From: Spirochaetia bacterium
Lineage (GTDB): Bacteria > Spirochaetota > Spirochaetia > CADAEX01
Direction of reading: 5' to 3'
Length of the DNA stretch: 64,000 nucleotides
NCBI GenBank assembly: GCA_963662265.2
Contig: CAXXHA010000035.1
Span: forward strand, 184,062 to 248,061
Position 1 is the first letter of the stretch. Each line of letters starts with the position of its first letter. Below, piece by piece: positions 6,987 through 54,965 of the stretch. Both the position numbers and the translations under genes were made by a program. Below the pieces are notes generated by a model that searched no databases, had not been told where the DNA came from, and saw only the letters and a list, made by a program, of their open reading frames with translations.

Positions 6987-7748
6987 ATGCTTAACAGCAA
7001 TAATATTCCAAAATATGTTCAGATATATAATTATCTTGACGGTCTGATAAAAAGAGGCAGGATTAAAGTCGGTGACCGGCTGCCTACAGAGGAAAAGATC
7101 GCAGCTGATTTCAAGGTGAACAGGATGACTGTAAGGCAGGCTATTGATGAGTTTGTAGTCAAGAAGATGGTTGTAAGAGAGCGGGGCAGGGGAAGTTTCC
7201 TGGTCAGAAACAGGCCGCAGGAGTACCTGTGGAGCTTTAACAACATAACAAGCTTTACAGATTCGATGCTGGATGCGGGAGTAAAGTCTGAATCTGAAAA
7301 TATCCTGATTGAGCTTTCAGAGGCAGATGACAGGGTATGTTCGCTTCTTGCCCTTGATGAAGGCGACAAGAGGGTAATACATACGCTCAGAAGCAAATAT
7401 GCCGAAGATGAGGTTGTCTGCTACGAGAGAAGTTTTCTTCCCTATAATGATTTCAGGGAAATCCTCGATATGAACATAGAAGGATCTCTTTATCATATAC
7501 TTGTTGATAAGTTCAATATAAAGCTTGATCATTCCACCCATACACTGAGCTCTTCGATAACAGGAGAGGAGGAGAGGACTCTTTTTCAGATAGATGAGAA
7601 TGTTTCCTGCATGATGGTTGAATCTGTTACCTATGATCCGGGAAATATCCCTGTTGAAGTCCTCTATACATGCTTCAGGGGAGATAAATTTAAATTCAGG
7701 ATTGAATCAGGTAAATATATTTATCAGAAAAAAGGGGATATCAGTTAA
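6987..7748 (+). CDS. GntR family regulator, HutC/UTRA subfamily (PhnF/PhnR-like)
   Basis: N-terminal wHTH (LPTEEKIAADFKVNRMTVRQA...RGRGSF) and UTRA C-terminus (SLYHIL, FRGDKFKF). Confidence 0.9.
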   Translation: MLNSNNIPKYVQIYNYLDGLIKRGRIKVGDRLPTEEKIAADFKVNRMTVRQAIDEFVVKKMVVRERGRGSFLVRNRPQEYLWSFNNITSFTDSMLDAGVKSESENILIELSEADDRVCSLLALDEGDKRVIHTLRSKYAEDEVVCYERSFLPYNDFREILDMNIEGSLYHILVDKFNIKLDHSTHTLSSSITGEEERTLFQIDENVSCMMVESVTYDPGNIPVEVLYTCFRGDKFKFRIESGKYIYQKKGDIS

Positions 7749-8397: not shown

Positions 8398-8732
8398 ATA
8401 TGTTTAATTATCACCTGACAATCTGAATTTTGCAAGGAAAATTTTATCAAAACCTGGGTAAAAATAAGCCAGAATAATAGTAAAACACTAAAATTTTCCG
8501 GTTTCTAATCTGATTGTTGATAAATACTGATTATTATAGGTCAATTATCTCCATAAATATTTATAGTAATTAAGATGATAATGATGATAATAATGATGTA
8601 TTTGCAAATATTATCAGTAAATGGAAAGAGCAGTGGATGGGTCGGGTATTTGTGATGACCCCGGATAGTTGTGGATGGGCCGGGTACCTGTAAATGTGTA
8701 AATCAGCTTGAAATCCTGACTGGGAAATTAAA

Positions 8733-8765
8733 TAAAAAAAGGCGTCCATTTAAAATGAACGCCTC
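8733..8765 (-). terminator. Terminator of phnW
   Basis: A run + AGGCGTcCATTT-a-AAATGaACGCCT hairpin. Confidence 0.65.
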
Positions 8766-8835
8766 CAGCTTTTATAAAAAGTCTGTTTTTGCCGCTGAAT
8801 GGTTGCCCGCAGGCTCAGCATAATTGTAGAAAATA

Positions 8836-9987
8836 TTAATATTTAACAGGAATAGCAACACCTGACTCTTTAAGAGCATTTTCGAGTACTTTGAAAGCAT
8901 CTCTGATATCTTCAGCTTTGAGAGCTCCAAGGTTACAGATTCTGAATGTTTCGAGGTCTGCAATTTTACCAGGATAGATTGTTACGCCGTTTTCAAACAG
9001 ATAATCGTGGATTTTTGAAAAATCAAAGTTAGGATCATTAGGATACATGAGTCCAACAACAAGTTTAGTCTGTTTTTCTTCAGGAAGAATTCCTTTGAAA
9101 CCAAGTCTTGTCATTTCTTCGTTGATTACTTTCCATCCGTCCATCAGTCTTTCGTATTTAGGCATTTCACCTTCAGCAAAATGTTCTTTGATTGCCTGCT
9201 CAAGTGAGTAGATAATCTGTACAGGAGGTGTGAAGTTCATCTGACCGTTCTTTTCAAAGAAATCATACTGTCTGTAAAGGTTTGTGTAGTATGATCTTTT
9301 TGGGTAGTCTTTTGATTTTTCGATTTCTGCTCTTTTACCGATGAGGTATGAAACGCCTGTGAAAGCATTCATTCCTTTCTGTGATGAAGCCATGCAGAAG
9401 TCAATGTTGTCTTTTTCTATATCGATAGGAAGAAGACCGTAAGTTGAAGTTGTATCTGTTACGAAAATTGAGTTGTATTTGTGAGCAAGAGCTCCAACTT
9501 CTCTGATTGGGTTCTTGATTCCTGTCCCAGTTTCCTGGTGAACCATGTATACAACAGCGATTTCAGAATCGTTTTTAAGAGCTTCTTCAACTTTTGCAAG
9601 ATCAGGAAGTTCTGTTACTCCGAACTGAAGGTTAACTGTTTCGATTCCGTAGTATTCACATGCTTCTGCAGCTCTTGCATTGTAAAAACCGTTGTTTACA
9701 ATAAGAACTTTTTTATTAGCTGGAACAAGTGATCCGAGGGCTACATCGATATTTATTGTTCCTGAACCTGCAAAAAGAACAGCTACGTGATCTTTTGTAT
9801 TTCCATGAACAACTTTTACAAGGTCCTCACAAACTTTTCTTGCAATAACTGCAAATTCTTCTTCTCTGTGGCAGATATCGCCCTGGATGAGAGATGCTTT
9901 AACAGTTTCAGTAGTTGTAGATGGACCCGGGTTTAATAATATGTTTCTTTTAACAGTTTTATTAACTGTCTGTTCCTTAAGTACCAT
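8836..9987 (-). CDS. phnW: 2-aminoethylphosphonate aminotransferase (PhnW/AepZ family, class V PLP)
   Basis: KRNILLNPGPSTTTETVK, GSGT, VHQETGTGIKNP, SSQK (PLP Lys), QMNFTPPVQ, TIYPGKI..TFRICNLG; strong RBS AGGAGG. Confidence 0.8.
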   Translation of the reverse strand: MVLKEQTVNKTVKRNILLNPGPSTTTETVKASLIQGDICHREEEFAVIARKVCEDLVKVVHGNTKDHVAVLFAGSGTINIDVALGSLVPANKKVLIVNNGFYNARAAEACEYYGIETVNLQFGVTELPDLAKVEEALKNDSEIAVVYMVHQETGTGIKNPIREVGALAHKYNSIFVTDTTSTYGLLPIDIEKDNIDFCMASSQKGMNAFTGVSYLIGKRAEIEKSKDYPKRSYYTNLYRQYDFFEKNGQMNFTPPVQIIYSLEQAIKEHFAEGEMPKYERLMDGWKVINEEMTRLGFKGILPEEKQTKLVVGLMYPNDPNFDFSKIHDYLFENGVTIYPGKIADLETFRICNLGALKAEDIRDAFKVLENALKESGVAIPVKY

Positions 9988-10266
9988 GGCTGGTTACTCC
10001 TCCTTCAAAAAAAACTATATCAAGTATTTTAATCGTATTCTAACATTTAAAGAATATTAGTCAATGCTGATGGATGAAATCCGGTAAAATATTCAGCTCT
10101 TTTTTATCTATATATTATAAAACATAACCAATTGTAATAAAAATCATGAGAAATAGTCTTATTTAGGGGAATTCGGTAAATACACACCTTGATTAAAAGT
10201 TATAAAAAAATAAAATAATATTAGTTGGACAGCATAAATGTGGAGATATTGGATATATTAAAATAA

Positions 10267-10322
10267 TGTAAAAAATTTGTTAAAATTTTCCTTGACAGAA
10301 TTCACTATCAACAGGTTAAAAT
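10267..10322 (+). promoter_or_regulatory. Promoter of the TAXI receptor with upstream TGT(A/T)AA half-sites
   Basis: TGTAAA 10267 and TGTTAA 10278 (11-bp period), TTGACA 10292-10297, TAAAAT 10317-10322 (19-bp spacer). Confidence 0.4.
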
Positions 10323-10384
10323 AGATATATAAAGTAATTTCTTTATAGAGGGGTGTTGCCCTTTGAAAATTTGAGGAGGAAATA

Positions 10385-11362
10385 ATGAAAAGAAGTCTTT
10401 TGTTGATTCTTTGTATTCTTGTTCTCGGTTCTTTTGTTTTTGCTGAAGGCCAGGGAGAAGGATCAGGCAAAACTAAAAAACACGCAATCATGGGATCATC
10501 AAGCTTAGGAGGAAGCTGGTACCCAACTGCTTCAAGAATTGCTGGTGTAACTATGAAATACACAGATTCTGTTGTAACTGTACAGTCATCAGGTGGTGGT
10601 ACAGAAAATATCAGACTTATGAAACAGGGTCAGTACCAGATGGGTATGGCTGAATCTAACATAATGGTTTATGGATACCAGGGAATCAGAGATTTTGACG
10701 GCGATCCCTACCCAGAACTTACATTTGTAACTCAGCTTTATCCCCTTATTTTCCAGGCTCTTGTAGCAAAAAGCACAGGCTGGACTACACTTGCAGACCT
10801 TAAAGGTAAATCATTTTCACCAGGTTCACCAGGATCAGGTGATGTTGCAGCATGGGAAGAAGTTTTTGACGGCGGTTTTAACATGCAGCCTGAAGACCTT
10901 ATCTGGAAACCACTTTCACATAATGAAAGATCAATGGCTTTCAAAGACAGAGTTCTTGATTCAGTAGGTTATGAAACAGCTTGCCCTGCAGGTTCAATTC
11001 TTGAAGCTACAGCTCAGAACCCAGGAACTATTCTTTCAATCGGTGGAAAAAACAGAGATCAGCTTATTGCTAAATATTCATGGTATGACCCATGGGTAAT
11101 TCCTGCTGGAACATACAATGGTCAGGACGAAGATGTTCAGACTATTATCCAGGGTGGTGGAATCATTGCTGATGCTAATGTAAGTGAAGAACTTATTTAC
11201 GACTATGTAAGCGCTATGTACGGACCTGGCCTCGAAGCAGTTCAGTCAGTTCATGCTAACGCTCATTACATTACACTTGACACAGCATGTGACGGTAGAG
11301 GACCTGTTCCAATACATGCAGGTGCTGCAAAATTCTACAAAGAAAAAGGTGTTTACAAATAA
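10385..11362 (+). CDS. TAXI family TRAP transporter solute receptor (paralog 1)
   Basis: Signal peptide; GGSWYP, SSGGGTENIRL, GSPGSG, IPAGTYNGQ, PIHAGAAKFYKEKG. Confidence 0.92.
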   Translation: MKRSLLLILCILVLGSFVFAEGQGEGSGKTKKHAIMGSSSLGGSWYPTASRIAGVTMKYTDSVVTVQSSGGGTENIRLMKQGQYQMGMAESNIMVYGYQGIRDFDGDPYPELTFVTQLYPLIFQALVAKSTGWTTLADLKGKSFSPGSPGSGDVAAWEEVFDGGFNMQPEDLIWKPLSHNERSMAFKDRVLDSVGYETACPAGSILEATAQNPGTILSIGGKNRDQLIAKYSWYDPWVIPAGTYNGQDEDVQTIIQGGGIIADANVSEELIYDYVSAMYGPGLEAVQSVHANAHYITLDTACDGRGPVPIHAGAAKFYKEKGVYK

Positions 11363-11380
11363 GATTTGTGGGATTTATAT

Positions 11381-11409
11381 GAAGCCGGATATTTATCCGG
11401 CTTCTTTTT
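11381..11409 (+). terminator. Terminator/stem-loop after the TAXI receptor
   Basis: GAAGCCGGATA-tt-TATCCGGCTTC-TTTTT. Confidence 0.75.
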
Positions 11410-11902
11410 CTGTATATATTGACTGTTTTTTGTTAAAAGGTATAAAAAGCCGGCAACATATCGACAGAAAAACCATTCGTATTTAAAAAACCTGGCAGAA
11501 TATCTCTGCAATTTATAGAAAAAATATTTTTTTGATTAGGTTTATACTTCCGGAATTGGAGGCTGGGAGATTCTATAAACTCTGTTTGCATTAAAATGTA
11601 CTTTTATAAAATGGCAAAAAGTGCAGATGAAAAGCATTCAGAAAATATTTCTTATACCGAATAGTATGGGGAATAGCTGATAGAGGAATTTAATACGGCA
11701 AAATTCCTGTATCACAAAAATCTGATATTACTTCAGGTAGGTATTCTGCCTCGCAGAATGCCAGTCTCATGCAGAAATAAATATACTACTTGTAAAAGTT
11801 TCTGTGAATGAGGCACTTGTCCCGCCAGGGGCATCTGTCCCGTATCGGGGCAGAAAAACCCTGTTTCAGGGTAAAAAACTCATATAGAAGGAAAGAAGAT
11901 TA

Positions 11903-14107
11903 ATGAGTGACGATTTGATGAGTAACCTCGATTACTCGAAAATGACAGAGGCGGAAATTGCTGAAGCAAAAGCAATTGAAGCCAGAGCTAAAGAGCTTGA
12001 AAAAGCTACTTCAGGCCACAGGGAGTGGAATAAGACCGGTCTTTTGGTAATTTCAGCAATTGCTATTGTTTACGGCTTGTTTCACATGTACACAGGTTTT
12101 GCTGGAATGTTCACTGCTCTCAGGCAGAGATCAATCCACCTTAGTTTTGCGCTTGTAATTTGTCTTATCAAATTTTCTGCAAACAGAAACAAAGATGAAA
12201 AGTCTGAACCAGTTATTCCTTACATCTTACTTGGTGTAGGTGCATGGACATCTGTTATTCTGACACTTCAGAGTAAAAAGATGCTTTCTTATGGTGCTGT
12301 AATAGGCGCTCTTGTTGTAATAGCTGCTATACTTTTTGTAGCAAGAATATTCACAAAGAAAGCAAGAGTGAAAGCTGGTGTTCAGGTTGAAAAGAAAATG
12401 GTCTGGTATGACTTTGTATTTATAACATTTGCACTTGTAGGATGTTACTATATTGCAATAAATACTGATGCAATTCTTGAAAGAGCTGGTATTGTATACT
12501 TAAAAGACCAGATTATCGGTGTGCTGCTTCTTCTTACCGTACTTGAAGCAACAAGACGATCAATCGGACATGTTCTCATGTTTATCGGTATTGTAATGCT
12601 TTTCTACTGTAGATTCGGATATGTATTTCCAGGCGTTTTCTGGCATCCAGGATTCCCTGTCAGCATGATAATCAGACACTTTATTCTTATCGACTCAGGT
12701 CTCTGGTCAACACCTCTCGGTGTATCTTCAAGTTATATATCACTGTTCCTTCTCTTAGGTGCAGCTCTTCATGCAACAGGTCTTGCAGAGCTTCTTCTTA
12801 AGATTGCGAAAGGTATCTTTGGTGCGATGGTTGGTGGACCTGCTAAGATGGCAGTTGTTGCATCATCAATGTTTGCTATGATCTCAGGATCTTCAACTTC
12901 AAACGTAGCAACAACAGGTATTATCACTATTCCTCTTATGAAGAAAACTGGTATTCCTCCACAGCTTGCAGGATCAATCGAAGCAGCAGCTTCTATGGGT
13001 GGACAGATTACTCCTCCTGTAATGGGTGCTGTAGCATTCATCATGGCAGAGTTCCTCGGTATCAGTTATGTAACTGTTATTGCAGCAGCAGCTCTTCCTG
13101 CAGCTCTTTACTACACAGCTGTATTTACAATGATTCACTTTGAATCACATAAAATCGGTGCTTATGGACTCAAGAAATCAGAACTTCCTGAATGGAAGGG
13201 TGATGCTCTTAGAAAAGGATATCTTTTCCTTCCTGTAATTGTACTTGTATACATGCTCTGTACTGGTTACACACCAATGAGAGCTTCATTCAACTCATTC
13301 TGGATTGCAATCGCATTAAGTATGTTCAGAAAAGAAACAAGACTTACTCCTAAGAAGTTCTTAAATGTTATTGATTCAGCAGGTCAGACTCTTACAGTAG
13401 TTGCTATCCCATCAGCTATCGCTGGTTTCGTAGTAGGTACTGCAACTCTTACAGGTCTTACTCCTGCTCTCTCATCATTCCTTGCAATGATTGCTCAGGA
13501 TAAACTTATCCTTACACTTATCATTACACAGGTTATGTGTCTTGTACTTGGTATGGGTGTACCAACAGTAGCTAACTATATCCTCATGACTATCATGACA
13601 GTTCCTGTAATGATCAGAGCCGGTGTTCCGCCACTTGCAGCACACCTTTTCTGTTTCCACTTCGGAATCATGTCAGAGCTTACACCTCCAGTAGCTATTA
13701 CTTCTTACACAGCTTCTGCTATTGCAGGCGCGCCGTTCTGGCCGACAGCTGGTAACGCTGTAAGACTTGCAGCTGTTGCATACATCGTACCTTACATCTT
13801 TGTATACAACACATCACTGCTTCTCGGAATGGAGCCGTTTACAGGTGGAACATTAGTAACTATAGTGATGGCGCTCCTTGGTGCGGTAACATTCGGAACA
13901 GCTATGGCTGGATTTATAAAGAGGCGAATGTATCTCATAGAACAGATTATACTGGCTGTTGCAGCTATTGCGATTATTGTACCGCGAGCACTTCCCAGAC
14001 TTGCAGGTATTTTAATTATCGGCGGTATTATTACAATGCAGTTTATCTATAAGAAAAATCCTAAGAACTACAAGGTTCCTGATAAGAAACCTGCTTATGA
14101 TGCATAA
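11903..14107 (+). CDS. TRAP transporter fused permease (4TM/12TM DctQM, TAXI-associated)
   Basis: LEATRR, GGPAKMAVVASSMFAMISGSSTSNV, EAAASMGGQITPPVMGAVAFIMAE, LGMGVPTVANY, ELTPPVA. Confidence 0.93.
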   Translation: MSDDLMSNLDYSKMTEAEIAEAKAIEARAKELEKATSGHREWNKTGLLVISAIAIVYGLFHMYTGFAGMFTALRQRSIHLSFALVICLIKFSANRNKDEKSEPVIPYILLGVGAWTSVILTLQSKKMLSYGAVIGALVVIAAILFVARIFTKKARVKAGVQVEKKMVWYDFVFITFALVGCYYIAINTDAILERAGIVYLKDQIIGVLLLLTVLEATRRSIGHVLMFIGIVMLFYCRFGYVFPGVFWHPGFPVSMIIRHFILIDSGLWSTPLGVSSSYISLFLLLGAALHATGLAELLLKIAKGIFGAMVGGPAKMAVVASSMFAMISGSSTSNVATTGIITIPLMKKTGIPPQLAGSIEAAASMGGQITPPVMGAVAFIMAEFLGISYVTVIAAAALPAALYYTAVFTMIHFESHKIGAYGLKKSELPEWKGDALRKGYLFLPVIVLVYMLCTGYTPMRASFNSFWIAIALSMFRKETRLTPKKFLNVIDSAGQTLTVVAIPSAIAGFVVGTATLTGLTPALSSFLAMIAQDKLILTLIITQVMCLVLGMGVPTVANYILMTIMTVPVMIRAGVPPLAAHLFCFHFGIMSELTPPVAITSYTASAIAGAPFWPTAGNAVRLAAVAYIVPYIFVYNTSLLLGMEPFTGGTLVTIVMALLGAVTFGTAMAGFIKRRMYLIEQIILAVAAIAIIVPRALPRLAGILIIGGIITMQFIYKKNPKNYKVPDKKPAYDA

Positions 14108-50119: not shown

Positions 50120-50740
50120 TTATTCTGTCCATGGGTTGTTTTTTTTCTCATCAGCTATAACAGTTTCCGGGCCATGACCTGTATAGACTCTTGTGTTATC
50201 CGGAAGTTTGTAAAGCTTTGTTTTAATTGATTCCAGCAGCAGATTGTGGTCTCCTCCCGGAAAATCAGTTCTTCCTATGCTTCTGAAGAAAAGCACATCT
50301 CCGCAGAAGAGAGAGCCTGATTTTTCATGGTAGAGGGATATACACCCCTGGGTATGGCCCGGAGTGTAAAGAACTGAAAGAGTGATTGAGCCGAAACTTA
50401 TTGTATCCCCTTCGTTTAATAATATTGAGGGCTCGGGAGACTGCTCAATACTCAGTCCGAAAAATGATGATCCTCCCCCCTCTTTCATGAGTCCGGCAGC
50501 ATGTTTGTGGGAAGCAATTTCTGTTGTCTCTTTTTTAAAGAAAGCATTTCCCCCGATGTGATCAAAATGGCCGTGAGTATTTATAATATACTTAAGATTC
50601 AGCTTGTTTTCATTTATATAGCTGTCAATTTCACTGCTCTTGTCGCCTGGATCAATCAGTACAGCTTCGCTCGTTTCAGTATCTTCGAGTAGATAACAGT
50701 TTGTCTGTACAGGCCCCAGCACATATTTTGTGATTTTCAT
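50120..50740 (-). CDS. MBL-fold metallo-hydrolase (glyoxalase II/YcbL-like)
   Basis: THGHFDHIG, TPGHT, GDVLF, GRTDFPGG, GHGPET. Confidence 0.92.
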   Translation of the reverse strand: MKITKYVLGPVQTNCYLLEDTETSEAVLIDPGDKSSEIDSYINENKLNLKYIINTHGHFDHIGGNAFFKKETTEIASHKHAAGLMKEGGGSSFFGLSIEQSPEPSILLNEGDTISFGSITLSVLYTPGHTQGCISLYHEKSGSLFCGDVLFFRSIGRTDFPGGDHNLLLESIKTKLYKLPDNTRVYTGHGPETVIADEKKNNPWTE

Positions 50741-51155: not shown

Positions 51156-52541
51156 ATGGAAGTTTTAGGGAAAAAGGAATTGGCGGTAAGTCGGGAACAG
51201 GGCGATATTAACACGAGTGATGAAAGACATAAGTACTGGGAGCGGAATCTCAGTAAAGAGGCAAGGGAAATATTTGAAGAGGATAAGAAATATTTCCTTC
51301 ATCAGGCTCTTTCAACTCCTGTACTGAATGTTCTGAAAAAGACTGACGGAATTTATATTGAAGACTGTGACGGCAGGAAATATATAGATATGCATGGTAA
51401 CGGTGTACATAATGCAGGATTCAGCAATCCGGAAGTAATTGAAGCTGTTAAAAAGCAGCTTGATGAAAAATTGGCATTTACTCCCAGACGTTACACAAAT
51501 GCCCCAGCAGTAAAACTTGCAAAAAAACTTGTTGAGATAACTCCTGAAGGTCTTGATAAGACTCTCTTCTGTCCCGGGGGGTCTGAGGCAAATGAAATGG
51601 CCCTTTCCCTTGCAAAGCAGGTAACAGGGAATTTCAGGACAATCTCATTCTGGGATTCATTTCACGGGGCAGGATATGCTGCATCAAGTGTAGGCGGGGA
51701 AGAGCACTTCAAGGGTGGACAGGGCCCGATGGTTCCCGGCGCATTTAAGGTTGAATTTCCCAACTATTACAGAAATCCATGGGGTTTTGAAAATGAAGAG
51801 CAGGTAGACAATGAATGCCTCAGGCAGATGGAGCTGATTTTCAGGAGGGAACCTGGTGTTGCAGCTGTTCTTGGTGAGCCTGTATCTGCAACCCCTGTAG
51901 TTCCCGGAAAGAATTTCTGGGGCAGGGTGAAGGAGTTGGCCCACAGGTATGGCGCTCTGCTTATTTTTGATGAGGTTATTGAAGGATTCGGAAGAACAGG
52001 CAAGATGTTTGCATGTGAGCATTTTATTACACCGGATATACTTGTGCTGGGAAAATCAATGGGGGGAGGTCTTGTACCGTTTGCCGGGATTGTAACAAAG
52101 TCTGAATATGATGTTCTTCACCACAGATCTATCGGTCATTATACACATGAGAAAAATCCTCTCTGCAGTGCAGCCGGGCTTGCAGAGATTGAATATATTG
52201 AAAAGAACAATCTTGTTGAAAATTCCAGGATCGTCGGAGAATATGCGATAGAGAGGTTCAATGAACTTAAAGCGAAACACCGGATAATCGGCAATGTGGC
52301 TGGTGTAGGCTGCCATCTGGGTATTGATCTTGTGAAGGACCGGAATACAAAAGAACGAGCTGTCGTGGAAGCTGAGTCTGTCATGTATAAATGCATGGAA
52401 AAGGGACTTGCTTTCAAGCTTATAGAAAGCAATATAATTACACTGCGTCCATCAATTCTCATCAGCAGGGATGAAATGGGGTGGTGTATTGATACTATAG
52501 AAGAAGCTATTATTGAAGTTGAGAATGGTAATTACTATTAG
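51156..52541 (+). CDS. pbfA: (R)-1-hydroxy-2-aminoethylphosphonate ammonia-lyase-like class III PLP enzyme
   Basis: Class III fold (DEV, LGKSMGGG) with the PbfA-type N-terminus REQGDINTS...FLHQALSTP...DMHGNGVH, plus PRRYTN, SFWDSFHGA and GHYTHEKNP. Confidence 0.78.
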   Translation: MEVLGKKELAVSREQGDINTSDERHKYWERNLSKEAREIFEEDKKYFLHQALSTPVLNVLKKTDGIYIEDCDGRKYIDMHGNGVHNAGFSNPEVIEAVKKQLDEKLAFTPRRYTNAPAVKLAKKLVEITPEGLDKTLFCPGGSEANEMALSLAKQVTGNFRTISFWDSFHGAGYAASSVGGEEHFKGGQGPMVPGAFKVEFPNYYRNPWGFENEEQVDNECLRQMELIFRREPGVAAVLGEPVSATPVVPGKNFWGRVKELAHRYGALLIFDEVIEGFGRTGKMFACEHFITPDILVLGKSMGGGLVPFAGIVTKSEYDVLHHRSIGHYTHEKNPLCSAAGLAEIEYIEKNNLVENSRIVGEYAIERFNELKAKHRIIGNVAGVGCHLGIDLVKDRNTKERAVVEAESVMYKCMEKGLAFKLIESNIITLRPSILISRDEMGWCIDTIEEAIIEVENGNYY

Positions 52542-52728
52542 TTTTTGAACCTGAAAAGCTGCAGTTTTGAAACTGATGATCCTGTATATAAGTAAATACT
52601 CCACGAATGTGTGATATATCCGGCTTGCCGGGTATATCTCCTTAATTTAATTATATTCAGAAACCTGACATGAAATAGGAGCTTCGATATTGAATATCCG
52701 TTTCAATTCCATTAATAAACAGATAACC

Positions 52729-52816
52729 CTAACACAAATCTAACAGAAACCTAACATAAGTTGCAATAAATATTGATTAATTGTTAGATGAATGTTAAAT
52801 GTTAGGATAATGTTAG
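52729..52816. promoter_or_regulatory. Pho-box-like arrays: CTAACA x3 (11-bp period) and inverted TGTTAR x4
   Basis: CTAACA at 52729, 52740 and 52751; TGTTAG/TGTTAA at 52782, 52793, 52800 and 52811. Confidence 0.55.
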
Positions 52817-52872
52817 GAAGTGTATACAGTTCCAGTATACATCCATCATTAAAACAACTCAAGGAGAAGGTT

Positions 52873-53847
52873 ATGAAGAAAACATTGATTATTCTTGCTA
52901 CGGTATTGCTTTTTTCAGCACAGGTTTTTGCAAACGGAACAATGGAAGGAAACGGAGCAGTAAAAAAACACGCAGTAATGGGTGTATCAGGACTTGGAGG
53001 CAGCGCTTATCCTGTAATGGCAGTTATCAGCGGACTTGTTGAAAAGAATACTGATTCAAAAGTTACAGTTCAGTCATCAGGCGGCGGGACTGAAAATATC
53101 AGACTCATGCAGCAGGGACAGTACCAGATGGGGTACTCAGAAGCAAATGTGATGGCTTACGGGTATAATGGAACAGATCTTTTCGAAGGTAATCCTTACA
53201 AGGATATGAGATTTGTAGCAAATGCATATCCGCTTGTATTCCAGGCAGTAGTTCATAAAAGCAGCAAAATCAAGAATCTTGAAGATATGAAAGGAAAATC
53301 TTTTTCACCGGGCTGTGCAGGTTCAGGTGATGAATCAGGATGGGCGGAAATCTTTAAAGCAGCTGGTCTTGAAAAAGAAGATCTTATCTGGAAACCTCTT
53401 ACTCATACAGAAAGAGCAATGGCATTTAAAGACCATGTACTTGACAGTGTAGGGTATGAAACATCATGTCCTTCAGGATCAATTCTTGAAGCGTCAGCTC
53501 AGAATCCTGTAACAATTCTTGCAATCACAGGTGATGTAAGAAAAAGAGTATTTGAAATGTATCCCTGGTATTCTCCATGGACTATTCCTGCAGGATCTTA
53601 TAACGGCCAGGATGAAGAAGTTGAAACATGTGTAGTAGGTGCTGCTATTATGGCAGATGCCAATCTTAATCCTGAAGTTATTTATGACTGGCTTTATGCT
53701 ATGTTTGATACTGATATGAAATCAGTACAGAGTGTACATGCTATGAGTAAATTCATCACTCTTGAATCTGCTCTTGACGGCAGAGGTCCGGTTCCTTTTC
53801 ATGATGGGGCTGCAAAATACTATAAAGAAAAAGGCATGATCGATTAA
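52873..53847 (+). CDS. TAXI family TRAP solute receptor (paralog 2, no adjacent permease)
   Basis: RBS AAGGAG before ATG 52873 (track starts at 52792); long identical blocks shared with 10385-11362 (VTVQSSGGGTENIRLM, DLIWKPL, VLDSVGYET, DGRGPVP). Confidence 0.92.
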   Translation: MKKTLIILATVLLFSAQVFANGTMEGNGAVKKHAVMGVSGLGGSAYPVMAVISGLVEKNTDSKVTVQSSGGGTENIRLMQQGQYQMGYSEANVMAYGYNGTDLFEGNPYKDMRFVANAYPLVFQAVVHKSSKIKNLEDMKGKSFSPGCAGSGDESGWAEIFKAAGLEKEDLIWKPLTHTERAMAFKDHVLDSVGYETSCPSGSILEASAQNPVTILAITGDVRKRVFEMYPWYSPWTIPAGSYNGQDEEVETCVVGAAIMADANLNPEVIYDWLYAMFDTDMKSVQSVHAMSKFITLESALDGRGPVPFHDGAAKYYKEKGMID

Positions 53848-53894
53848 TCTGAAAATATTTTTCAGAAGATAATTGCTGCTTCGCTGCAGTAATG

Positions 53895-53931
53895 AAAAAT
53901 CCCTGTTCCCGGTCCGGACAGGGATTTTTTT
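53895..53931 (+). terminator. Rho-independent terminator
   Basis: AAAAATCCCTGTtCC-cggtcc-GGACAGGGATTTTTTT. Confidence 0.75.
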
Positions 53932-53993
53932 GATAATAATCCTTAATTCAGTTTATAATAAATTTAAGAAGATTGCTTATTTTGAATAGCTGA

Positions 53994-54203: not shown

Positions 54204-54965
54204 CTATCGTATCAATACAAGCCGACTGCTGCTGTATTTTTCATAAAGATCATCTGACAATCCGGAGTCTGTAATGATTCTGTCTGCATAATCAAGACTG
54301 CACATTTTCAAAAGGCATACCCTCTCAAAATTGCTGCTTGTTGCAAGAATTGTTTTGCAGCCTGATATTTCCATCATTTTTTTCTGGGTCTGAAGTTCAT
54401 CAATCCTCAGGTCTGTAATACCCTCGTCAAGTGATATGCCGCTTGCACTTATAAATGCAGTGTCTACCCTGAACCGTCCGAGGTTGTCCTCTGTCATTTC
54501 GCCGAAAACTGAGTATTCATTGTTTTTGAAAACCCCGCCTGCAAGGATTATGGTATAGTTATTCATCTCAGACAGTTCATTCAGGACTTTAAGTGAATTA
54601 GTAAGTATTGTAAGCCTTGTGAATTTTTCCCTTAACTTTTTAGCAAGCTCCAGTGTTGTTGTCCCGCAGTCAAGGGCAAGGGAATCCCCCTCTTTTATAA
54701 ACCGGAGTGCTTTTTCTGCAATTTCCTGCTTTTCCCATTCATGTTCTTTTTCCCTGTAGTTGAATGCAGGGTATTTTTTATTGCTTTTCTCAAGTGTTGC
54801 TCCGCCATGTACTCTTTTAACAAATCCCTCTTTTTCGAGATTTTCAAGGTCTCTTCTTATAGTTTCTGAAGAGACGGAAAAGAGCCGGTTAAGGTCTGCT
54901 GCTCTGACAAAACCAGATTTTTCAATTAATGACAGTATTTTTTCATACCTTTCCTGGGGATACAT
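54204..54965 (-). CDS. DeoR/GlpR family transcriptional regulator
   Basis: VSSETIRRDL, RVHGGA, LDCGTTT, TNSL. Confidence 0.93.
   Translation of the reverse strand: MYPQERYEKILSLIEKSGFVRAADLNRLFSVSSETIRRDLENLEKEGFVKRVHGGATLEKSNKKYPAFNYREKEHEWEKQEIAEKALRFIKEGDSLALDCGTTTLELAKKLREKFTRLTILTNSLKVLNELSEMNNYTIILAGGVFKNNEYSVFGEMTEDNLGRFRVDTAFISASGISLDEGITDLRIDELQTQKKMMEISGCKTILATSSNFERVCLLKMCSLDYADRIITDSGLSDDLYEKYSSSRLVLIR

Follow-up and report, generated by a model that had tools for sequence, protein, structure and literature searches.

An orphan TAXI receptor beside a PbfA-family gene in a gut Spirochaetia genome is a candidate accessory receptor for a phnW-linked TRAP permease

In bacterial nutrient import, one membrane unit can be served by several receptors: HisJ and LAO share the ATP-binding cassette (ABC) translocator HisQMP. 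Here we describe a possible counterpart among the secondary transporters of the TRAP family, found in a 64,000-nucleotide stretch of a Spirochaetia bacterium genome (GenBank assembly GCA_963662265.2, contig CAXXHA010000035.1, positions 184,062 to 248,061; G000:C35:184062-248061 in our own numbering), referred to below as the window. The assembly comprises 3.77 Mb in 41 contigs and is 90.6% complete. At 51156 to 53847 of the window, pbfA1, a predicted aminophosphonate lyase gene, is followed by TAXI2, a gene for a TAXI-family TRAP receptor with no membrane partner of its own. As in the HisJ/LAO system, paralogous receptors would widen the substrate range of a single membrane unit; here that unit is a secondary TRAP permease and its sharing is one that we infer.

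The closest described enzyme is PbfA, which eliminates ammonia from (R)-1-hydroxy-2-aminoethylphosphonate (R-HAEP) to give phosphonoacetaldehyde and has no transaminase activity; PhnW also yields phosphonoacetaldehyde, and the PbfA family was found through phnW-phnX or phnW-phnA-phnY clusters (PMC8154272). On the transport side, characterised TAXI-TRAP systems, such as VcGluP/VcGluQM of Vibrio cholerae (PMC11574862) and the receptor TtGluBP (1us4), take glutamate/glutamine and other organic acids. The known importers of 2-aminoethylphosphonate (AEP), namely the ABC systems PhnSTUV, AepXVW and AepSTU and the major facilitator AepP, are encoded beside phnW, are induced with AEP catabolism and, for the ABC systems, depend on a receptor (PMC8316502, PMC10574752). 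In the available sections of these two articles no TRAP system is given as a phosphonate importer, the review citing TRAP only as another receptor-dependent family, and within the limited library searched we found no literature linking TAXI/TRAP systems to phosphonate uptake. Orphan TRAP receptors are rare, the vast majority of TAXI receptors being encoded in an operon with a TRAP membrane component; TAXI-GltS of Bordetella pertussis is a receptor gene lacking an adjacent TRAP membrane gene, and shows that TAXI receptors can serve non-TRAP carriers (PMC12344293).

The component families of our locus (PbfA, TAXI receptor, fused TRAP permease and PhnW-AepZ) are therefore known, and their arrangement is not described in the literature searched. 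The main genes are as follows.

51156..52541, plus strand: pbfA1, PbfA-family pyridoxal phosphate (PLP) enzyme, matched by NF049939 and PF00202 over its full length
52873..53847, plus strand: TAXI2, orphan TAXI-family TRAP solute-binding protein of 324 aa (corrected start), with signal peptide
53894..53935, plus strand: intrinsic terminator after TAXI2 (hairpin 53894-53930 plus U-run)
8836..9987, minus strand: phnW, 2-aminoethylphosphonate aminotransferase of the PhnW-AepZ family (TIGR03301, NF010006)
10385..11362, plus strand: TAXI1, phnW-linked TAXI receptor (TIGR02122, 211 bits)
11903..14107, plus strand: fused TRAP (TAXI-type) permease (TIGR02123, 586 bits against a cut-off of 320.65)
Contig C15 (locus L029), 8730-9731 on the minus strand and 10204-11574 on the plus strand: third module, TAXI3 and PbfA2, divergently adjacent

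Both frames of the pbfA1-TAXI2 locus, 51156-52541(+) and 52792-53847(+), are present in the list of open reading frames (ORFs). A first-pass annotation, made from the window sequence alone, had taken the receptor to begin at 52792. The start is most likely the ATG at 52873, because alignments with TAXI1 and with an 86%-identical orthologue begin there; AAGGAG lies 7 nt upstream of this ATG, and both start and ribosome-binding site (RBS) are kept in that relative. The interval 52792-52872 is therefore promoter/operator DNA outside the coding region. From the corrected start, the hydrophobic N-terminus MKKTLIILATVLLFSAQVFA, read off the translation by eye, is a putative signal peptide. TAXI2 matches TIGR02122 (235 bits against a cut-off of 84.35) and PF16868 (231 bits) over its full length, and belongs to the same receptor fold family as TtGluBP (1us4, 141 bits) and VcGluP (8s4j, 132 bits); module 1 likewise shares with VcGluP/VcGluQM a fused membrane component of TIGR02123 type. 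TAXI2 aligned end to end with TAXI1, as had been reported, with 191 of 323 positions identical (59%), 1 gap and an E-value of 2e-144. The longest identical runs were VTVQSSGGGTENIRLM (16 aa), VLDSVGYET, KGKSFSPG and EDLIWKPL, and the four divergent segments picked out earlier (SSLGGSW/SGLGGSA, SPGSGDVAAW/CAGSGDESGW, SHNER/THTER and TACPAGS/TSCPSGS) were present as quoted.

No membrane component is encoded within the TAXI2 locus, so the gene is in no operon with one, and the nearest TRAP permease gene is 39 kb off. The gene is followed by a strong terminator, whose 98-nt region folds at -35.8 kcal/mol (z -7.05, with none of 200 shuffles as good) and is kept in the relative, and then by a convergent DeoR-family gene. 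With no permease there, TAXI2 is a true orphan paralogue of the phnW-linked receptor, as the first-pass annotation had it.

PbfA1 scored 647 bits against the curated equivalog model NF049939 (cut-off 525), covering model positions 2-441 of 442, and has the class-III aminotransferase fold (PF00202) along its full length, which upholds its assignment as PbfA-like. PbfA2 scored 682 bits against the same cut-off, and the two paralogues are 50% identical. Comparison with a Vibrio PbfA gave 41% identity for PbfA1, and 48% for PbfA2, to the pbfA product of a phnW-pbfA-phnX cluster on a Vibrio parahaemolyticus plasmid. A PDB search returned no PbfA structure, the top match being 7vno, a gamma-aminobutyrate (GABA)-aminotransferase-like protein (261 bits). 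Unlike the family members found through phnW clusters, pbfA1 is in neither a phnW-phnX nor a phnW-phnA-phnY cluster; 42 kb separate it from phnW, which lies upstream, and the search for a phosphonatase was negative. The genome also differs in having two PbfA paralogues, of predicted activity, each paired with a TAXI receptor rather than an ABC transporter. PhnW itself passed TIGR03301 (409.2 against 360.8) and NF010006 (311.6 against 296). Its association with a receptor-dependent importer resembles the known AEP systems, though a TRAP/TAXI system, driven by an ion gradient, is another transporter class.

TAXI1, TAXI2 and TAXI3 belong to a Spirochaetia-restricted receptor subfamily whose clades follow the enzyme encoded next to them (PhnW, PbfA1, PbfA2 or PhnX-like/HpnZ). 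Pairwise identity among the three is 47-59%, against 19-30% with the remaining four intact receptors of the genome. A search of 5.8 billion proteins gave 45 at E <= 1e-30, of which 31 had at least 44% identity (at least 286 bits); the first protein past those 31 dropped sharply to 176 bits and 33% identity. A profile scan, taking one genome per species and annotating neighbours by BLAST against the window proteins and with NCBIfam/Pfam, found 26 loci, all from Spirochaet* records of metagenome-assembled genomes (MAGs). In a maximum-likelihood tree of 42 receptors (all rows at least 280 aa; rooted for drawing only, the three outgroup TAXIs from the host genome having very long branches), the subfamily was monophyletic with support of 97/96. 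The TAXI2 clade had 100/99, the TAXI3 clade 100/100 (19 rows) and a PhnX-like-linked clade 100/100; the TAXI1 groups were not resolved as a single clade. TAXI2 shares at least 43% identity with subfamily members, falls within the 97/96 clade and carries the invariant E90, G152-D153, H178 and E180-R181.

The TAXI2, TAXI3 and PhnX-like-linked clades each have one kind of neighbour. TAXI2 accompanies pbfA1 and deoR in G007, a congener MAG whose TAXI2 orthologue is the one with 86% protein identity, and an orthologue 64-65% identical stands next to deoR in a third MAG, at a contig start. The TAXI3 clade accounts for 12 loci in relatives, none with a permease in the flanks examined. Seven have pbfA2 next to the receptor, and in four of these a second receptor stands in tandem; in three the locus begins at the end of a contig, and in two the neighbours are different. 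The fourth clade, from two relatives, has a receptor and its own permease between a PhnX-like hydrolase (149.5 bits against a cut-off of 218.9) and an HpnZ alcohol dehydrogenase (332.6 against 328.1). As for module 1, the order phnW-TAXI1-permease recurs in 6 loci of the profile scan and 2 further regions in relatives, flanked by aspS/gntR and purQ/purL as in the window. The earlier observation that one TAXI subfamily flanks unrelated phosphonate enzymes thus holds, and extends to four enzyme contexts. Basal subfamily receptors (L079 8636-13695 in G002, and L048 in another MAG) have their own permease, an ornithine-cyclodeaminase/SbnB-like dehydrogenase and a PRK07475-type racemase-like protein as neighbours, which hints at possible amino-acid-like ligands at the subfamily root.

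We then counted TAXI systems genome-wide, as the first-pass annotation had suggested. Seven intact receptors and one broken one, on contig C3, passed the cut-off, alongside four intact fused permeases (C32, C24, C16 and the window) and one broken one, also on C3. Four of the receptors (C32, C24, C16 and TAXI1) lie beside a permease gene and three are orphans (TAXI2, TAXI3 on C15, and a receptor on C34). Only one permease, at 11903-14107, belongs with the receptor subfamily: cognate permeases of relatives are 55-88% identical to it, the other three of the host genome 30-32%. A subfamily permease was found in 18 of 20 genomes of the family, and the two lacking it are 74% and 58% complete. The broken pair (C3:89681-92990; L005, L006, L011, L041) carries frameshifts and stop codons in both receptor and permease, and is a decaying TAXI-TRAP system.

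A natural case of separation occurs in G006 (99% complete, and identical with G011). Its single subfamily permease adjoins phnW; no receptor gene was found up to 18 kb away, and tblastn gave no remnant of one. That genome has just two receptors of the subfamily, both orphans, one of them beside pbfA2. TRAP permeases depend on a receptor. If this one does, its receptor must be encoded in trans, because none is nearby and only orphans exist elsewhere. In another genus, g2 (G002, G004; L078 9882-14861, L082 7538-12524; also G005/G009 contig C51), a single TAXI1 precedes two permease copies in tandem, which are 67-70% identical to the window permease, and two orphan receptors lie at pbfA2.

Docking of TAXI2 on the 11903-14107 permease, another check suggested by the first-pass annotation, was run as a complex prediction. 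Permease residues 40-734 with TAXI2 residues 26-324 scored 0.55, the best of 3 controls scoring 0.00; the runs agreed in at least 89% of contacts, with a partner predicted local distance difference test (pLDDT) value of at least 80, and the prediction cannot tell a cognate receptor from a paralogue. Of 157 solved complexes, 116 passed the mark set for this prediction, as did 2 of 215 mismatched pairs. Only 18 of the 157, along with both of those mismatches, passed with a score of 0.60 or less. The support is weak. The census, the G006 case and this prediction together support sharing of the permease in trans by the orphan receptors. The earlier proposal that the second receptor uses the first permease is supported to that extent.

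Taken together, our best explanation, to which we give roughly even confidence, is that TAXI2 is a plug-in receptor delivering the PbfA1 substrate to the phnW-linked permease. TAXI2 would be a secreted accessory receptor of a Spirochaetia-specific TAXI-TRAP subfamily for small C2 amino(hydroxy)phosphonates. Having no membrane partner of its own, it would most likely dock on the cognate fused permease 11903-14107 beside phnW, which would then also import the PbfA1 substrate, an HAEP-like amino-alcohol phosphonate. TAXI3, beside PbfA2, would play the same part for a third ligand. Once imported, these compounds would converge on phosphonoacetaldehyde, through transamination by PhnW and loss of ammonia catalysed by PbfA1 and PbfA2. 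In other genomes, transport genes of other kinds come after PbfA1 orthologues, which also counts in favour of this explanation.

Several observations weigh against this explanation, and the first of them concern gene control and gene content. The control elements between the genes are as follows.

52613..52638, plus strand: terminator-like hairpin with an 11 bp stem, 4-nt loop and T-rich tail, 72 nt past the pbfA1 stop
52729..52816, no strand assigned: operator-like array, three CTAACA followed by inverted TGTTAG/TGTTAA units, just upstream of the TAXI2 RBS
11381..11410, plus strand: hairpin and U-run between TAXI1 and the permease

Between pbfA1 and TAXI2 lie a hairpin and a repeat array private to this site. 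When GC-rich hairpins with a U-run were compared with shuffled sequence, an intrinsic terminator was found after TAXI2, with weaker ones after pbfA1 and TAXI1. The hairpin after pbfA1, found by a consensus scan, folds at -17 kcal/mol (z -3.31, 2 of 200 shuffles equally good). This hairpin and a 331-nt spacer from the pbfA1 stop to the TAXI2 start speak against a single operon; the two genes look like neighbouring yet separate transcription units, TAXI2 with a control region of its own. The array holds 6 strict hexamers against a background of 0.107 per kb. No other site in the 3.77-Mb assembly packs 4 or more such hexamers into 110 nt, and the TAACA/TGTTA units of the array are kept at the same position in the 86%-identical relative. 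No motif common to the TAXI2 upstream region and module 1 was found. A shared operator was considered and rejected, as the CTAACA/TGTTAG array occurs only upstream of TAXI2. A single CTAACA does lie upstream of phnW (window 10030-10065) and is kept in 6 of 10 relatives' loci, from three genera. Read on the phnW strand, it gives TTGACT, a spacer and TGTTAGAAT, a promoter -35 and extended -10; this conserved phnW promoter box is no evidence for a common regulator.

Within module 1, the hairpin after TAXI1 (-17.2 kcal/mol, z -3.79, 1 of 200 shuffles as good) is followed by more hairpins in 11405-11902, within a 540-nt spacer before the permease that is long only in the host genus and measures 99-116 nt in rumen lineages. 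With this hairpin and spacer, the permease may be expressed independently of any one receptor. Rfam gave 0 matches at gathering score across the whole window, including the 540-nt permease leader and the pbfA1-TAXI2 spacer. Of 7 listed sequencing runs, 6 hold the stretch or part of it, in 2 studies, and none of these holders is an RNA run.

Gene content raises a second difficulty. In G008, of the same genus and 97% complete, pbfA1 abuts deoR and pbfA2 abuts lysR; TAXI2, TAXI3 and the APC-family gene found near TAXI3 in our genome are all absent, and TAXI1 is the only subfamily receptor. Because G008 keeps both pbfA genes without them, the orphan receptors are dispensable for whatever the PbfA lyases do. 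The claim that each receptor sits beside its cognate enzyme fits the clades, which follow their neighbouring enzyme, and is qualified by the apparently separate transcription and by G008.

One could go further and regard TAXI2 as a recent insertion or decaying duplicate unrelated to pbfA1. Its absence between pbfA1 and deoR in G008 and the apparently separate transcription units would fit such an incidental adjacency, as would the varied neighbours of pbfA1 orthologues in other genera, which follow a different TAXI-TRAP with an ArgE/DapE-type deacylase, a Bmp-type ABC system or a PhnA-like protein. We nevertheless consider this very improbable: the frame is intact, signal peptide, RBS and terminator are kept in G007 at 86% protein identity, and the 64-65%-identical orthologue in the third MAG is likewise next to deoR. 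In addition, all seven TAXI2-clade sequences carry a clade-specific pocket change (below), and the pbfA2-TAXI3 pairing recurs in 7 further loci.

Alternatively, TAXI2 could work apart from the phnW-linked permease, signalling to a kinase or chemoreceptor or serving another carrier. The same genome has a precedent: the orphan receptor on C34 (L031: 5134-8998) is co-directional with an MctS-like histidine kinase and a GGDEF protein, with no permease, and is likely in sensory use. The use of a non-TRAP carrier by TAXI-GltS (PMC12344293), the private promoter region and unique repeat array of TAXI2, and the weak complex prediction point the same way. However, no kinase, chemoreceptor or carrier gene adjoins TAXI2, and, in a further difference from TAXI-GltS, a permease of the cognate subfamily is encoded elsewhere in the genome. 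Members of the wider clade of TAXI2 are mostly encoded beside one permease subfamily, and the G006 permease has no receptor of its own. We therefore rate a separate partner as unlikely, and return to TAXI2 as a receptor for the phnW-linked permease, for which the nature of the ligand is the next point to weigh.

To map the ligand pocket, the glutamate-binding residues of VcGluP (PMC11574862) were transferred through the 8s4j alignment, with numbering checked against the chain. The position of Q93, the strongest binding determinant in VcGluP (PMC11574862), is occupied by E90, invariant in 29 of 29 aligned subfamily sequences, and G156-D157 by the invariant G152-D153. At the Y45 position, the TAXI1, TAXI3 and TAXI4 clades (the last from the PhnX-like-linked loci) have W, and the seven TAXI2-clade sequences A, S or I. 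In the characterised receptors for glutamate/glutamine and other organic acids, these positions thus differ from those here (Q93 to invariant E, Y45 to W or A), and here the neighbouring genes encode aminophosphonate enzymes and two or three receptors, two of them orphan, fall to one permease. The TAXI3 clade has its own residue set (T44, N121, F/Y155, C156 and Q199). Invariant E90, G152 and D153 with a variable Y45 position are consistent with a ligand scaffold common to the receptors and a side pocket that differs.

The TAXI2 and TAXI3 pockets differ, and share no common "hydroxy-AEP" signature, which also counts against our explanation. The divergent segments proposed earlier as pocket do include pocket-equivalent positions 40, 45 and 198, and this part of the proposal survives. 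The further inference, that duplication gave one permease two specificities, for AEP and hydroxy-AEP, is too simple, given three receptors, two PbfA paralogues and unlike PbfA-linked pockets; three specificities are more likely than two. If an R-HAEP pair exists, PbfA2/TAXI3 would be a better candidate than PbfA1/TAXI2, because PbfA2 is 48% identical to the cluster pbfA, against 41% for PbfA1, and is 85-93% identical across genera. PbfA1/TAXI2, with the smaller residue at position 45, may have a bulkier analogue as ligand.

The remaining counterpoints concern PbfA1, the neighbour of TAXI3 and the pathway. The closest plasmid homologue of PbfA1, 61% identical, lies outside any phosphonate context, only 41% identity connects PbfA1 to the pbfA of a bona fide phnW-pbfA-phnX cluster, and TAXI3 adjoins an APC-family gene in the host genus. 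More broadly, the assumed route through phosphonoacetaldehyde has no known end. In the host assembly (90.6% complete), the best PhnX match scored 48.5 bits against a cut-off of 220 and the best PhnY match 23.4 bits against 635.65, and PhnA and PhnJ had no match. No carbon-phosphorus (C-P)-cleaving enzyme for phosphonoacetaldehyde or phosphonoacetate was therefore found in it, leaving the hydrolytic AEP pathway incomplete. None of the 20 family genomes had a PhnX above the cut-off, and 3 had a PhnX-like protein below it. In the same genomes, PbfA was present in 16, PhnW over its cut-off in 17, and PepM, the mark of phosphonate makers, over its cut-off in 5. Outside the family but within the class, a sample of 41 genomes yielded no PbfA.

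Several ways to supply the missing end were considered and rejected. Loss of PhnX to an assembly gap is unlikely, even at 90.6% completeness: the G007 island of PhnX-like hydrolase, TAXI4, permease and HpnZ is absent at the syntenic C37 site, where the contig continues on both sides, and the near-complete congener G008 has no PhnX either. A HAD-IIB hydrolase two genes downstream of phnW in rumen lineages is of the wrong HAD subclass for PhnX and is absent from the host genome. Salvage from HAEP through phosphonoacetaldehyde and AEP to cytidine monophosphate-AEP (CMP-AEP) for surface decoration was unsupported in the host, where the island parts it would draw on are absent: tblastn found no cytidylyltransferase domain, PepM or phosphonopyruvate decarboxylase (Ppd) homologue at E <= 1e-3. 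Such an island exists in G007 (L085 5596-12194), where 6.8 kb encode a PotABCD-like ABC transporter, a cytidylyltransferase-PepM fusion and Ppd, that is, phosphonate biosynthesis without an aminotransferase of its own. It is absent at the syntenic host site C35:116117-116284, and salvage into surface phosphonates is conceivable in G007. In another lineage (G014, L088 81-2791), a PhnA-like protein of the alkaline-phosphatase superfamily (TIGR02335, 170.6 bits against a cut-off of 407.55) is encoded directly upstream of a PbfA1-like gene and is a candidate alternative C-P hydrolase there.

The absent aldehyde sink is the main argument for another explanation, in which the lyases, the "PhnW" and the receptors serve non-phosphonates (amino alcohols or amino esters, for instance phosphoethanolamine or a different derivative of ethanolamine), and no phosphonatase is needed. 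Beyond the missing PhnX, PhnA, PhnY and PhnJ, the modest identities of PbfA1 and PbfA2 to the canonical cluster pbfA agree with it. PhnW falls below the narrower TIGR02326 model (298.9 against 400.8) and is 33% identical to Vibrio PhnW. The APC gene beside TAXI3/PbfA2 in the host genus is ethanolamine-permease-like, and the ethanolamine-phosphate phospho-lyase 6tor (164.7 bits) is among the solved relatives. Against this, both PbfA paralogues and PhnW pass curated equivalog cut-offs, a PhnX-like hydrolase, HpnZ and a PhnA-like protein adjoin subfamily members or PbfA1-like genes in relatives, and PepM in 5 of 20 family genomes means that phosphonates occur in the lineage and habitat. We thus judge non-phosphonate substrates improbable. 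A tentative reading for the family as a whole, somewhat less improbable, keeps phosphonates throughout. Under it, this gut Spirochaetia family would run an aminophosphonate pathway without any known C-P-cleaving enzyme, with a modular TAXI-TRAP importer for AEP, HAEP and a third analogue, built from a core permease and interchangeable orphan receptors encoded next to the enzymes they serve; PhnW and the PbfAs would take the nitrogen, and the aldehyde would be cleaved by an undiscovered, non-homologous phosphonatase or discarded, in which case phosphonates would be scavenged for nitrogen only. The importer would then be the first of TRAP type for phosphonates, and its permease the first of the TRAP family to be common to several receptors.

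The genes flanking the two modules of the window are as follows.

50120..50740, minus strand: metallo-beta-lactamase (MBL)-fold hydrolase, divergent from pbfA1 (PF00753, 126 bits)
54204..54965, minus strand: DeoR-family regulator, convergent with TAXI2 (PF00455 and PF08220), in a neighbourhood kept in 3 genomes
6987..7748, plus strand: GntR/HutC-type regulator of module 1 (PF00392 and PF07702), top match PhnF TIGR02325 at 112 bits, below the cut-off of 156.8

The DeoR gene adjoins TAXI2 at L042 and L043 and, as noted, abuts pbfA1 in G008; the regulator may have a link to the pbfA1/TAXI2 module. No NCBIfam model was over its cut-off for the MBL-fold protein, whose gene adjoins pbfA1 at L042, L087 and L089 and not at L086 or L088. 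On C15, a LysR regulator gene accompanies the APC gene beside TAXI3/PbfA2. Compared with G007, where the gene is intact and encodes 456 aa, the APC gene itself (L029 ~7338-7560) carries a 1-nt insertion that splits it, which reflects either a pseudogene or an assembly error. C15 probably follows directly on the window, because the window reaches the end of C35 and pbfA1 and pbfA2 are 25 kb apart in G007. Elsewhere in the genome (C10:228308-232454, L030), a second PhnW-like class-V aminotransferase (285.6 bits, below the cut-off of 360.8) is encoded beside a DctM-type TRAP large permease gene, two ORFs without an NCBIfam match and a glycerol kinase gene; orthologues at similar scores occur in 4 other family genomes.

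Protozoa and invertebrates are rich in aminophosphonates such as AEP, which should therefore be plentiful in the rumen, hindgut and termite gut, the habitats from which the subfamily-bearing MAGs come according to their records. If TAXI2 does deliver the PbfA1 substrate to the phnW-linked permease, a fourth, ion-driven class would join the known phosphonate importers. It would also be a clean system in which to test the sharing of a TRAP permease by several receptors. The poorly characterised TAXI receptors would gain their first non-carboxylate, phosphonate ligands, with three natural pocket variants for studies of specificity. Finally, the absence of PhnX, and in the host genome of PhnA, PhnY and PhnJ, beside conserved phnW and pbfA makes the fate of phosphonoacetaldehyde in these anaerobes testable, and may point to an undiscovered enzyme.

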